Shown here piece after piece: positions 5,780 to 64,000 of a stretch of DNA of 64,000 nt. Every line of letters begins with the position of its first letter. Within the stretch, counting starts at the first letter, position 1. A program made the translations under genes and the position numbers. The stretch is from Bacteroidota bacterium. Its GTDB lineage: Bacteria > Bacteroidota > Bacteroidia > B-17B0 > Aurantibacillaceae. The stretch lies in NCBI GenBank assembly GCA_029237825.1, contig JAQZBQ010000003.1, forward strand, positions 166,001 to 230,000. Reading direction: 5' to 3'. The notes under the pieces are model-generated. The model worked only from the letters and a program-made list of their open reading frames with translations, made no database searches and was not told the origin of the DNA.

Positions 5780-5872
5780 GAAACAAATATAATTATTTTA
5801 ATAAAGTTGATATTAGCCTTTAATTACTGAAACTTGGCTTCTCTAATTTTTCAAGGAATATTACGTTAAAGC

Positions 5873-5919: not shown

Positions 5920-5994
5920 TGGTAGCCCGTACGGGAATCGAACCCGTGTTTCGTCCGTGAAAGGGACGCGTCCTAACCCCTAGACGAACGGGCC
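5920..5994 (-). tRNA. tRNA-Glu (anticodon UUC)
   Basis: Reverse complement is GGCCCGTTCGTCTAGGGGTTAGGACGCGTCCCTTTCACGGACGAAACACGGGTTCGATTCCCGTACGGGCTACCA (75 nt). It folds as a cloverleaf: a 7-bp acceptor stem (G1-U72 wobble), anticodon stem CGTCC/GGACG with loop CTTTCAC, a GGTTCGATTCC T-arm, and an encoded CCA. Confidence 0.95.
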
Positions 5995-60121: not shown

Positions 60122-60601
60122 ATGGATAGTACTGAGATTTTAAAGTTCATATCGGCTGCACTGGCCAATACCGTTTCGCTCTCAAAAATCGGAATTCCAA
60201 CGGTAATTGCTCTTTACAAATCTAACTATGTGATGGCTTTACTGAGCAGTTGCTTCGGTGCAATACTAGGTACTGTCGTATTTACTTACGTTTTTGCCGG
60301 GTTATTAAAATGGTGGGAACGTGTTAAAGAAGGCATGTTCACTTCCAAGCATCCAAAAAAAATATTTACCAAATTCAATAGGCGCGTCATCCGTGTTAAA
60401 AACCGTTTTGGTTTGATTGGAATTGCCATGTTGACACCAATTTTACTTTCCATACCCATTGGAGCATTTTTGGCAGAACGTTTCTACAAACATAAAGGTA
60501 AAGTAATTTTGTATTTAAGCTTAGCGTCGATTTTCTGGTGCTTCACCCTTTACTTTTCCTATCTCTACTTTTACGATAGTTTTAAATCCTGGTTAAATTA
60601 A
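60122..60601 (+). CDS. hypothetical small membrane protein
   Basis: Four hydrophobic segments. No family recognised. Its stop codon abuts the stop of the convergent gene. Confidence 0.5.
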   Translation: MDSTEILKFISAALANTVSLSKIGIPTVIALYKSNYVMALLSSCFGAILGTVVFTYVFAGLLKWWERVKEGMFTSKHPKKIFTKFNRRVIRVKNRFGLIGIAMLTPILLSIPIGAFLAERFYKHKGKVILYLSLASIFWCFTLYFSYLYFYDSFKSWLN

Positions 60602-61570
60602 TTACAATTTCAGGAATTTCAATTGCTGGAAACTTACTCCATCTTTAATAATCACACTATATACTCCGGGTTGGAAACAGGACACGTCAATAACAGTTTG
60701 ATCAGAGGATGTTTCGCTCAAAAGGACTTTTCCTAAAATCGAACATACTTCATAATTAAAAACTGACCCCGCTTTCCTCCGCAAAATTAACTTGTCTTCA
60801 GCCGGATTCGGGTATATCGATACACTTTCATTTCCCAACTCGTCCACTCCTACAGGCATTTGGTTAATCACACCCACCGCGTCAAGATCGAAACCACCAT
60901 TTCCAAATCCTGTTGGCCAGGGATCATTAATCTTATTTTTGTGTCGATCGCGACTACAGTACTGATCCTGGAGTGACCCAACAACATCCACAATTTTTAC
61001 GTGAGTAATTGCCTGTTTATTCAGTAATAAATTATCAGGGATGTCGTCTAAATCAAACGGTGTCCCAAAACCTCCCCTGTATTTACCTGCCAGATTATTA
61101 ATTTTTGTAGCGTCCGTAAGTCCAAAACTCCAGGTTTGTGTTACCGTATCACTATTGCTGGTGGCCGGGAACCTAAAAAAAGTTCCTCCGTCGCTGCTCA
61201 CCTCTACAAATGCCAGTTCGAGAAATGCATCATCAAAACCATTTTCAAACACTGCAAAATCCGGTCCAGCACCATTGATAACCGGCGTAGCAAAAGTTAA
61301 AATGGCTGAACCTCCATCGCCAAGGCAAACAACGCCTCCATAATCGGCAATGCCTATCGCAAGGGATGCGTCGCCCACGTCGGTATAACCAAGTGACGGA
61401 TTAGAAACATCCTGAAAACCCCGGTTTACGATACAACCTGTAGCCCAGGACTTAAAAGCTGAACTATCCAACGACATTGCCGTTGATCCAGGCTGACCTG
61501 TAGGTGGTGCAAATTGCGCATTCACAGTCAACTGAACTACCAAAAAGATTCTGCAAAAAACAGATTTCAT
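60602..61570 (-). CDS. T9SS C-terminal-domain secreted protein of unknown function, downstream of a cobalamin riboswitch
   Basis: Signal peptide MKSVFCRIFLVVQLTVNAQ. A ~230-aa domain carries GPDFAVFENGFDDAFLELAFVEVSSDGG. The C-terminus SIYPNPAEDKLIL...GVYSVIIKDG...LKFLKL fits the T9SS sorting domain. The ATG at 61570 lies 56 nt after the riboswitch aptamer. Confidence 0.8.
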   Translation of the reverse strand: MKSVFCRIFLVVQLTVNAQFAPPTGQPGSTAMSLDSSAFKSWATGCIVNRGFQDVSNPSLGYTDVGDASLAIGIADYGGVVCLGDGGSAILTFATPVINGAGPDFAVFENGFDDAFLELAFVEVSSDGGTFFRFPATSNSDTVTQTWSFGLTDATKINNLAGKYRGGFGTPFDLDDIPDNLLLNKQAITHVKIVDVVGSLQDQYCSRDRHKNKINDPWPTGFGNGGFDLDAVGVINQMPVGVDELGNESVSIYPNPAEDKLILRRKAGSVFNYEVCSILGKVLLSETSSDQTVIDVSCFQPGVYSVIIKDGVSFQQLKFLKL

Positions 61571-61624
61571 AAAAAAGACACAATGCCTTTATGAGTTTAT
61601 GTCCCGAACCCAAACATTGATTTA

Positions 61625-61765
61625 TTGGCAGGTCTTCTGACTTGTTCTACTATGCGCCTTCCCGATCAAATCAGTGGCGTTTTGGCATAGTACTAATTGA
61701 ACGTTACAGCTGCGGGTACAGTACCGGACTTACACCGGTTTCCCTTTCCAACAGGGGCAAAGATA
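61625..61765 (-). promoter_or_regulatory. cobalamin (adenosylcobalamin-type) riboswitch
   Basis: The minus strand contains three conserved elements. The first is GGAAAGGGAAACCGGTGTAAGTCCGGTACTGTACCCGCAGCTGTAA (61749->61704). The second is the B12-box-like GCCACTGATTTGATCGGGAAGGC (61678->61656). The third is GTCAGAAGACCTGCC (61641->61627). Their order and spacing match the conserved core of the cobalamin riboswitch class, as in the E. coli btuB leader. Recognised by eye; no covariance-model search was run. Confidence 0.85.
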
Positions 61766-61870
61766 TAAAAAAATTGAATTTCTGTAATATTTATAACTTC
61801 TGCCACAAAGTCTTAAATAACAATGGCATAATAATCGTGTATATTGCGTAACTAATATTTACGTGATCGT

Positions 61871-64000
61871 ATGATTTTCTTAAAAGATTCTGAAAAAATG
61901 CCCTTTGACCCTATGATTGACGAGGATAGTGATTTTATTCCTTTGTTAACTGCGGAAGATGAAGATAACATGCATGCCGAGAAAATTCCGGATGTACTGT
62001 CAATTTTACCGCTACGGAATACGGTGTTATTTCCAGGAGTAGTTATCCCTATTACTGTTGGCAGAGACAAGTCTATTAGTTTAATAAAAGAGGCTTATAA
62101 AGGGGATAGAACCATCGGTGTGGTTGCCCAAAAAAATGATTCCATTGAAGATCCTCAACAGGACGATTTAAACGCAGTTGGTACCGTGGCCCAGATCATT
62201 AAAATGCTGCGCATGCCGGATGGCAATACAACGGTTATTATTCAAGGAAAAAAACGTTTCAGGATAAAGGAATTTACCCAGTCTGAGCCATATTACCGTG
62301 CTAAAACTGAACGCTTTGAAGAGACACGTCCTGAGAAAAACGACGAAGAGTTTCAGGCAATTGTGTCAACGTTAAAGGATACAGCGTTATTGATCATTCA
62401 AAAATCCCAGCACATTCCTACTGAAGCGGGGTTTGCGCTTAACAATATCGAGAGCCAGAACTTCATGGTAAACTTCATATCCTCCAATATGAACGCCAGT
62501 TCGGCTGAAAAACAAAGAATGCTAGAAGTTCCCAGCTTAAAAGACCGGGCAACGATGGTATTGGCCCATCTTACCAAAGACCTGCACATGCTGGAACTGA
62601 AAAACCAGATACAGGATAAGGTTAAAGTGGATTTGGATAAACAACAACGCGATTACTTTTTGCACCAGCAAATAAAAACCATTCAGGAAGAGCTGGGGGA
62701 AAAAGGTAACGAACAGGAATTTGAAGAATTACGGGCCCGCGCGAAAACTAAAAAATGGAGTAAAGAAATTGGTGACATATTTGAAAAGCAAATGCACAAA
62801 TTGTCACGCATGAATCCAAATTCGCCTGAATTCGGCGTTCAAACCAATTACCTGGAACTTCTATTGGATTTGCCCTGGGGCGAATACACCGTTGATAATT
62901 TTGATCTGAAACACGCGGAAATGACTTTAAACCACGATCATTTTGGTTTAGAAAAAGTGAAGGAACGTATTTTGGAACACCTGGCAGTTTTAAAATTGAA
63001 GGGAGATTTAAAAGCTCCGATACTTTGCCTTTACGGTCCTCCGGGTGTGGGAAAAACCTCTCTTGGAAAAAGTATTGCCAAAGCTTTAAACAGAAAATAT
63101 GTTAGAATGGCTTTGGGCGGATTGAAAGATGAAAGCGAAATCCGCGGGCATCGGAAAACTTATATTGGCGCAATGCCAGGGCGAGTTTTACAGAATTTGA
63201 AAAAGGTGCAGTCGTCCAATCCGGTGTTTATTCTGGATGAAATTGATAAGGTAGGAAATGATTTTCATGGCGACCCTTCGTCTGCCCTATTGGAAGTATT
63301 GGACCCTGAACAAAATTCAACATTCTATGATAATTTCCTGGAAAATGATTATGACCTGAGTAAAATATTATTCATAGCTACCTGCAACAACTTATCCTCC
63401 ATACAGCCTGCTTTACGGGACAGGATGGAGATAATTGATGTAAGTGGATACACTGTTGAGGAAAAAATAGAAATTGCCAAACAACATTTGTTATCCAAGC
63501 AAATTGAAGACAATGGATTAAAGAAATCACAGCTGAAGCTTTCGGATAAGCAACTGGAATTTATCATTGAAAATTATACAGCAGAAAGTGGAGTGCGTCA
63601 TTTAGAAAAACGCATTTCAAAGATTGCCCGTTATGTTGCGGTGCATGTGGTAAAAAAAGAGCCACTTCCTAAAATTAACGAGGAGACGATCGCTAAGATT
63701 CTTGGTCCGTCACATGAAAAAGCGAAATACCAGGGAAATGATGTACCCGGTGTTGTTACAGGACTTGCGTGGACCCAGGTTGGAGGTGATATTCTATACA
63801 TTGAAACGAGCTTATCTAAAGGTAAAGGTGGTAAACTAACCCTGACAGGTAATCTGGGTGAGGTAATGAAAGAAAGTGCCACGCTTGCATTGGAATTCAT
63901 TAAAGCCCATAATGAAGAATTCAATATCGATGCTGAGGTTTTTGAAAATTATAACATCCACATTCATGTGCCGGAAGGTGCTACCCCAAAAGACGGGCCA
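61871..64000 (+). CDS. lon: ATP-dependent Lon protease (N-terminal ~710 codons; continues past window end)
   Basis: Not in the ORF track because it has no stop in the window. Hand translation gives ...IPDVLSILPLRNTVLFPGVVIPITVGRDKSISLIKEAY... (LON N-domain), and Walker A GPPGVGKTSLGKSIA near 63040. The frame is open from 61856 to 64000. The start is ATG 61871 or the in-frame ATG 61898. Confidence 0.95.
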   Translation, partial: MIFLKDSEKMPFDPMIDEDSDFIPLLTAEDEDNMHAEKIPDVLSILPLRNTVLFPGVVIPITVGRDKSISLIKEAYKGDRTIGVVAQKNDSIEDPQQDDLNAVGTVAQIIKMLRMPDGNTTVIIQGKKRFRIKEFTQSEPYYRAKTERFEETRPEKNDEEFQAIVSTLKDTALLIIQKSQHIPTEAGFALNNIESQNFMVNFISSNMNASSAEKQRMLEVPSLKDRATMVLAHLTKDLHMLELKNQIQDKVKVDLDKQQRDYFLHQQIKTIQEELGEKGNEQEFEELRARAKTKKWSKEIGDIFEKQMHKLSRMNPNSPEFGVQTNYLELLLDLPWGEYTVDNFDLKHAEMTLNHDHFGLEKVKERILEHLAVLKLKGDLKAPILCLYGPPGVGKTSLGKSIAKALNRKYVRMALGGLKDESEIRGHRKTYIGAMPGRVLQNLKKVQSSNPVFILDEIDKVGNDFHGDPSSALLEVLDPEQNSTFYDNFLENDYDLSKILFIATCNNLSSIQPALRDRMEIIDVSGYTVEEKIEIAKQHLLSKQIEDNGLKKSQLKLSDKQLEFIIENYTAESGVRHLEKRISKIARYVAVHVVKKEPLPKINEETIAKILGPSHEKAKYQGNDVPGVVTGLAWTQVGGDILYIETSLSKGKGGKLTLTGNLGEVMKESATLALEFIKAHNEEFNIDAEVFENYNIHIHVPEGATPKDGP

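Follow-up and report, generated by a model that had tools for sequence, protein, structure and literature searches.

A classical cobalamin riboswitch with a conserved P13 platform upstream of a gene for a T9SS-sorted candidate corrinoid-capture protein in environmental Bacteroidota

In Bacteroides thetaiotaomicron, BtuJ (DUF4465), BtuG and BtuH are surface corrinoid-binding lipoproteins whose genes are repressed by cobalamin riboswitches, and the btu riboswitches of Bacteroides have been reported to repress translation (PMC13616437). In the cobalamin riboswitch clan, ligand-dependent docking of loop L5 onto loop L13 is an established regulatory step, and a short J1/13 linker favours this docking (PMC5028336). 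Translation in Bacteroidota does not rely on Shine-Dalgarno pairing, and the primary sigma factor of the phylum recognizes a -7 box, TAnnTTTG, which lies at -12..-5 relative to the transcription starts mapped in Flavobacterium psychrophilum (PMC9723704). Here we analysed a 64-kb stretch of Bacteroidota DNA (the window), near one end of which a cobalamin riboswitch stands in the leader of a single gene. The cobalamin riboswitch class is well known and the RNA is an ordinary one by itself; its larger value is as a pointer to a widespread, unannotated, T9SS-sorted protein family embedded in B12-uptake operons.

An Rfam scan (cmscan) of the whole window gave exactly two matches above threshold, one to RF00174 (Cobalamin) at 61610..61777 on the minus strand and one to a tRNA gene (5923..5994, minus strand, 61.3 bits), whose anticodon loop, CUUUCAC as read by eye, suggests tRNA-Glu(UUC). 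The RF00174 match scored 87.3 bits, where the gathering score is 31.5 (E = 3.5e-20), spans the full model (positions 1-189) and is far above chance. The first-pass annotation had assigned the cobalamin class on the basis of three minus-strand elements, and the RF00174 cutoff comparison that it had proposed as a check thus came out clearly on its side. All three elements are present on the minus strand: the core GGAAAGGGAAACCGGTGTAAGTCCGGTACTGTACCCGCAGCTGTAA at 61749..61704, the string GCCACTGATTTGATCGGGAAGGC at 61678..61656, within which the B12 box region GCCACUG...GGGAAGGC with helices P9/P10 was recognized in the sequence, the Rfam match and the alignments (61656..61678), and the string GTCAGAAGACCTGCC at 61641..61627, which carries the GACCUGCC element (61634..61627) seen both in the sequence and in the Rfam alignment. 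The core, the B12 box and the GACCUGCC element stand in the canonical order for RF00174, and the window RNA shows every computationally testable defining feature of the classical cobalamin riboswitch family. Judged from its sequence, the RNA is a genuine cobalamin riboswitch; it belongs to the classical RF00174 type and has the B12-box peripheral extension. The 300-nt gap in which it had been placed is real (61571..61870, between the ATG of the downstream gene at 61570 and the start of lon at 61871), and the earlier description of this gap as richer in GC than its flanks was correct relative to the adjacent promoter and platform DNA (0.31-0.37, compared with about 0.41-0.43 for the aptamer) but not relative to the flanking coding sequence, which reaches 0.50. 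The distance from the aptamer end to the ATG, previously put at 56 nt, is actually 53 nt, with the 3' strand of P1 ending at 61624, so that the riboswitch lies in the 5' leader on the same strand as the gene. Overall, the evidence supports the earlier interpretation, and the corrections concern extent only.

The Rfam alignment places the 5' strand of P1 on UUUAUAUCUUUGC, where it forms four non-canonical pairs in what we read as promoter DNA. A putative -7 box of the Bacteroidota sigma-A type, TATCTTTG (61758..61765, minus strand; consensus TAnnTTTG), recognized from its recurrence in orthologs, lies 5 nt upstream of the strand GUUGG (61752..61748), which pairs with CCAAU (61628..61624) to form a P1 of only 5-6 bp. 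Among loci of the direct type, 21 of 23 carry a TAnnTTT[GA] box that ends 3-5 nt before the GUUGG of P1, and the ortholog alignment shows a near-invariant TAT(A/C/T)TTTG followed after 3-5 nt by GUUGG. Compensatory changes occur in this helix, namely GUCGG/CCGAU in locus L012 and a G-C to A-U replacement in L015 and L018. A P2 hairpin is still present in the relatives L025 and L028 (around 5790-5830), where GUUGGAA and AAGGGAA flank it, which confirms GUUGG as the 5' strand of P1. Given the -7 box and the covariation of P1, the first approximately 24 nt of the Rfam match (61777..61754) are probably promoter DNA, not P1 or RNA. From the box at 61765..61758 and the known -12..-5 placement of such boxes, transcription is predicted to start at about 61753, 1 nt before GUUGG, and the RNA most likely runs from there to the AUG at 61570. 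A sigma-70 promoter scan found nothing on the minus strand, and the sigma-70 model does not apply to Bacteroidota.

On its other side the gap borders lon (61871..64000, plus strand), a divergent gene that runs past the end of the window and is supported by the Pfam domains LON_substr_bdg, AAA and Lon_C and by a JGI call of 805 aa. A motif at 61800..61812 (plus strand CTGCCACAAAGTC, minus strand GACTTTGTGGCAG) lies 59 nt upstream of the lon ATG, and 18 related loci have the GACTTTGTGGCAG motif 55-60 nt ahead of lon. We considered it as a -33 or other regulatory element of the riboswitch promoter and rejected this, since it stays with lon even where the riboswitch-controlled gene is 1-2 kb away; for the same reason GACTTTGTGGCAG/CTGCCACAAAGTC is assigned to the lon upstream region, as a putative promoter or regulatory element. 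Between this motif and the riboswitch -7 box lies a further stretch of 16 nt, TTATAAATATTACAGA (61781..61796, minus strand), which is near-identical in the window and its closest relatives (L001, L004 and L006) and could be a -33/UP region or could just reflect recent common ancestry.

The aptamer proper occupies 61624..61752 on the minus strand, with P1 enclosing P3-P6 and the peripheral extension that carries the B12 box, as delimited by minimum-free-energy (MFE) folding and covariation. Folded alone, 61753..61617 gave an MFE structure (-37.2 kcal/mol) with exactly the architecture expected, in which P1, P3, P4, P5 and P6 are accompanied by a peripheral extension bearing the B12-box hairpins, unlike the MFE of the whole 251-nt region, which was uninformative (z = -0.75). 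The P2 hairpin is absent from the window copy, where the Rfam alignment has 2 nt in place of 14 model positions. For the comparative analysis, the structure was written onto a MAFFT alignment of 12 sequences and converted into a covariance model of aptamer plus platform (R1); the 12 seed sequences all have a 4-nt J1/3, and MAFFT mis-registered P1 where J1/3 is 3 nt. In a 60-sequence alignment derived from the model, 94.7% of cells pair, a percentage inflated by the fitting of this alignment to the model structure, and both sides have changed in 42 of 55 pairs, compared with 16-26 pairs and 28-50% of cells in slid controls; none of 500 shuffles reached the observed values. The B12-box region helices (helices 10 and 11) were among those scored. 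The unfitted MAFFT alignment of the 12 sequences gave a consistent picture, with 97.3% pairing and 17 pairs changing on both sides against 2-4 in slid controls, and in the two alignments the orthologous regions thus show the compensatory changes that the first-pass annotation had proposed to look for. The 5' half of the aptamer is degenerate in L007 (5787-5830; GUUUUAGAAGGAAUG...GGUAUCAGUCC), which had the lowest Rfam score (62 bits), and L002 (5830-5880) carries an insertion of about 44 nt in the loop of the B12-box hairpin.

Downstream of P1, the sequence is conserved to the same degree as the aptamer. A 4-nt J1/13 linker, AAAU (61620..61623, minus strand; AAAU or AAAC in close orthologs), leads into the expression platform, a two-tier P13 hairpin at 61581..61619 that is supported by covariation and by folds of the orthologs. 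Its lower helix is CAAUGUUU/AAAGGCAUUG, its upper helix is GGGUU/AACUC, and its loop L13 is CGGGACAUA (61606..61598), with CGGG at 61606..61603. In the 60-sequence alignment, all pairs of the two P13 helices changed on both sides (7/7 in helix 13 and 6/6 in helix 14), and above the freely covarying upper helix the loop CGGGA(A/C) is invariant. This conserved P13/L13 platform, which extends to 61581 and had been left unresolved by the earlier reading, belongs to the functional unit. P13 ends 10 nt before the AUG (61570..61568), and the intervening leader is U-rich (UGUCUUUUUU; 61568..61580 including the AUG) and has no Shine-Dalgarno sequence in the window; across 11 orthologs the leader is variable, A/U-rich and 8-13 nt long. 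Loop L5 of the aptamer, UACCCG (61713..61718, minus strand), is invariant among close orthologs, and its CCCG (61716..61713) is complementary to the CGGG of L13 (61606..61603). The two loops have both become CGCG in L041/L045, and an operon-type locus, L059, shows the same change independently; these are few independent events, and such a co-change is the compensatory signature of the predicted L5-L13 kissing loop. Among operon-type loci (L027, L071, L038 and L055), some L13 loops (CGUGGA, CGGAGA) are unpaired with L5 in the consensus register. L13 loops of the GGAG type co-occur with a U replacing the A before CCC in L5, which suggests that the kissing-loop register may be shifted in these copies.

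The linkage between the RNA and the gene family was assessed in 80 genomic loci from Bacteroidota MAGs. RF00174 was found directly upstream of the gene in all 11 orthologous loci tested with Rfam (62-92 bits). A strict regular expression for the core found just 21 of the 80 loci, and R1, used in its place, matched upstream on the same strand in 59. In the DNA covered, the remaining 21 loci had no cobalamin riboswitch by R1 or Rfam, and about seven of these have little upstream DNA; riboswitch control is not common to all members of the gene family. Riboswitch-free loci (e.g. L032, L039, L040, L044, L051, L054, L063 and L069) have different neighbourhoods.

Collectively, we consider the following explanation of the locus likely as a whole. 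The region from about 61753 to 61571 on the minus strand would be the 5' leader of gene 60602..61570, with transcription probably starting 1-2 nt before GUUGG from the sigma-A TAnnTTTG promoter. A corrinoid, probably adenosylcobalamin, would bind the four-way-junction aptamer, upon which L5 (CCCG) would dock onto L13 (CGGG) of P13. Tethered to P1 by just 4 nt, P13 would then be locked in a compact tertiary complex, reaching to 10 nt from the AUG and occluding the A-rich upstream region (about -11 to -50) needed by the 30S subunit on this Shine-Dalgarno-independent mRNA. Plentiful B12 would thus repress translation of the single downstream gene, whose product, secreted by the type IX system, would probably be located at the cell surface and most likely have a role in corrinoid capture. 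Class membership, the covarying secondary structure, the complementarity of L5 and L13 and the conserved linkage of RNA and gene are shown by the analysis; the transcription start, the ligand, the sign and translational level of regulation and the function of the protein are inferred. Two points weigh against this account: P1 is short, and L13, about 35 nt upstream of the AUG, cannot hold a ribosome-binding site as it does in env8HyCbl, so that the block of initiation by docking is a proposed step. The locus nevertheless illustrates well a kissing-loop platform in a phylum where Shine-Dalgarno sequences are not used.

Three other accounts were weighed, one of which makes the RNA resemblance incidental and the plus-strand frame at 61642..61851, antisense to the riboswitch, a real small gene. 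The plus strand is indeed open there for 69 codons from a TTG start, as a mechanical ORF list shows. Against a gene stand the RF00174 E-value given above and the substitutions in the region, which follow compensatory base pairs; in orthologs, moreover, the antisense frame is interrupted or shifted, the longest frame over the riboswitch ranging from 25 to 370 codons at shifting positions among 22 orthologous loci. The frame has no Pfam match, and the JGI gene calls on the source contig (Ga0456371_00000099, 320 kb) include none in the gap. We give next to no credence to a gene at this position, in agreement with the first-pass annotation, which had called the frame spurious; it is not conserved and is not a gene. 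The RNA mainly serves to correct the annotation in this respect, by exposing a spurious frame in the gap, and it assigns the downstream gene to the B12 regulon.

The other two accounts accept the riboswitch and differ over what it does. Control could be exerted on transcription or mRNA level, through an intrinsic terminator or through Rho- or RNase-dependent mRNA loss. A run of six U (61576..61571) does follow a possible weak 5-bp hairpin, GACAU/GUGUC, just before the AUG, and cobalamin riboswitches can alter mRNA abundance besides ribosome loading (PMC5028336). However, the terminator scan of the minus strand was empty, the U tract and hairpin are missing from many orthologs (no U run is present in L004, L006, L009 or L003/L005), and conservation in the platform falls on P13/L13 and not on a terminator; the first-pass annotation, too, had been unable to recognize a canonical one. 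We regard control at this level as unlikely, and because no terminator is conserved, translational repression is preferred as the best-supported mechanism, which makes the leaning of the first-pass annotation towards translational control reasonable. Alternatively, the window copy might be an ON switch, in which a ligand-free fold pairing CAUAAAGGCA with UGUCUUUUUUAUG hides the AUG and L5-L13 docking favours P13 and frees it. The isolated window platform (61550..61625) indeed has such a fold as its MFE, in which AUGUUU pairs with GGGACAU and hides the GGG of L13 while CAUAAAGGCA pairs with UGUCUUUUUUAUG and hides the AUG (P(unpaired AUG) = 0.06), P13 by itself is weak in the window (-1.6 kcal/mol), and activating corrinoid riboswitches exist (PMC10327014). 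Since the window platform MFE pairs both the L13 GGG and the AUG, the sign of regulation cannot be read from thermodynamics. Yet this alternative fold is specific to the window, whereas about 13 of the 19 orthologs folded gave the two-tier P13 as their MFE, mostly with a largely unpaired leader (-12..-1). All characterised riboswitch-controlled B12-uptake genes in Bacteroidota are repressed by B12 (PMC13616437), and inducing a scavenging protein when B12 is abundant would make little physiological sense. An ON switch is, in our judgement, very improbable, and repression of translation by B12 is retained as the predicted mode of control.

The regulated gene (60602..61570, minus strand) encodes a protein of 322 aa with a signal peptide, an N-terminal domain (N-domain) and a T9SS type A C-terminal sorting domain. 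The gene forms a unit of its own because it is convergent with a 159-aa ORF (60122..60601, plus strand) without a Pfam match, which probably encodes a membrane protein; the stop codons of the two abut at 60601/60602 with no spacer. The sorting domain, at residues 252-312, matched PF18962 (Por_Secre_tail, E = 4e-10) and TIGR04183 (E = 6e-9), each above its cutoff, and residues 2-15 form an N-terminal helix in the AF2 model, so that the signal peptide and sorting domain by which T9SS type A cargo is recognized are both present. Between them lies an unannotated N-domain of about 230 aa (about residues 19-245), for which Pfam and NCBIfam gave no match, these databases recognizing the sorting domain only, and for which profile searches of PDB sequences found no relative, their matches likewise being confined to the sorting domain. 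An AlphaFold model built from a 150-sequence alignment (pLDDT 89.3) consists of a beta-sandwich domain followed by the sorting domain; an earlier run with 39 close homologs reached a pLDDT of 65 and was discarded. The 50 listed Foldseek matches in the PDB were generic two-beta-sandwich structures (the N-terminal region of beta-glucuronidase, TMq about 0.2, rmsd >14 Å) and included the solved T9SS C-terminal domains 8GLK_D and 8QB1_A, with no specific structural relative of the N-domain among them. The 322-aa product has >8000 database relatives, and the best 120 listed bear only the names "hypothetical", "secretion protein" or "T9SS type A sorting domain-containing", with no functional name. 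The N-domain family is large: clustering at 50% identity gives 1796 clusters at E<=1e-3 and 718 at E<=1e-30. T9SS proteins of very large size (1100-2200 aa) likewise contain the N-domain.

The genomic surroundings of this family point to B12. Homologs of BtuB, DUF4465 or BtuG stand on the same strand as the gene in 32 of 79 loci, and in 17 of those 32 the order behind the riboswitch is BtuB, DUF4465, X and BtuG, X being the present family. The propeller gene of these operons matches the solved BtuG structures 8BMX and 8BMY/8BMZ (E = 5e-63 to 4e-61), and the matches of the DUF4465 gene are to solved DUF4465/BtuJ structures, 9I2L among them. The N-domain is moreover found fused to such partners, in the arrangements DUF4465 + X + C-terminal domain (P0160, P0171, P0247 and P0253), DUF5074, a BtuG-like propeller, + X + C-terminal domain (P0298) and DUF4430 + X + C-terminal domain (P0244), and in P0160 the two parts are joined precisely where the mature window protein begins. 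DUF4430 is what we take to be the transcobalamin-like C-terminal domain family. The fusion partners DUF4465 (BtuJ-like) and BtuG-like propeller are known corrinoid binders, and the third, DUF4430, is B12-associated. P0285, P0301 and P0337 were noted together with these fusions and the very large T9SS proteins.

The N-domain itself shows no detectable homology to the described corrinoid binders in the comparisons made. It gave no Pfam match to DUF4465 (PF14717) at E<=1, and an hhalign comparison with the operon DUF4465 profile returned a probability of 0.3%; nor did it match in Pfam the DUF5074 or YncE-like seven-bladed propeller of BtuG, the AF2 model being a beta-sandwich plus C-terminal domain. 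No BtuG, BtuH, BtuJ or BtuK chain appeared in the PDB-sequence search at E<=10 or among the 50 listed Foldseek matches, and the BtuH2 C-terminal domain (7BIZ) appeared neither in the PDB-sequence profile search at the same threshold nor in the same 50 matches, so that a very remote similarity to it may exist among matches of lower rank. A full-text literature search on T9SS together with BtuG or B12 uptake turned up no description of a T9SS-sorted B12-binding family. The 322-aa protein is thus a candidate for corrinoid capture at the cell surface, a role that the associations described above motivate well. Whether the riboswitch-controlled gene represents an undescribed corrinoid-capture family of environmental Bacteroidota, with a beta-sandwich of about 230 aa displayed by T9SS alongside BtuB, BtuJ-like proteins and BtuG, we hold to be evenly balanced; this reading is drawn by association only, from the riboswitch in 59 of 80 loci, the BtuB-DUF4465-X-BtuG operons, the fusions and the 1796 clusters. 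If the N-domain does bind corrinoids, the recently described multiprotein cobamide relay of gut Bacteroides would extend to environmental Bacteroidota with a different anchoring.

Compared with the described systems, the window RNA agrees with the classical adenosylcobalamin type of RF00174, exemplified by the E. coli btuB leader, in its full-model match, its GGGAA...GGUG...CUG.ACCCGCAGCUGUAA core, its B12 box and GACCUGCC element, and its four-way junction with a peripheral extension. Unlike the RF00174 model, it has no P2, and its P1 is just 5-6 bp long and begins at about +1/+2 of the transcript, counted from the predicted start. With env8HyCbl (Polaski et al. 2016, PMC5028336) it shares a P13 loop complementary to L5, a short J1/13 and no obligatory terminator, and, as in that system, translational repression is expected. 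However, env8HyCbl belongs to a variant class without the peripheral extension and has its ribosome-binding site in L13, whereas in the window RNA L13 caps a two-tier hairpin some 35 nt ahead of the AUG, and there is no Shine-Dalgarno sequence. The missing P2, the short P1 at the 5' end and a two-tier P13 suited to Shine-Dalgarno-independent initiation are variations within the known class.

The RNA belongs to the same cobalamin class as the B. thetaiotaomicron btu riboswitches, which repress BtuB and surface-exposed corrinoid-binding proteins (PMC13616437). In contrast to those systems, the window riboswitch controls one gene, the cargo carries a T9SS sorting domain in place of a lipoprotein signal, and the organisms concerned are environmental Bacteroidota known from MAGs. 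Although the window N-domain has no detectable homology to BtuJ (DUF4465), BtuH or BtuG, the family shares with them the same riboswitch regulon and operon neighbourhood. Operons of related MAGs contain the present family in the order btuB-btuJ-like-X-btuG, and the fusions of the N-domain with DUF4465 and with BtuG-like propellers parallel the known BtuGH fusion.
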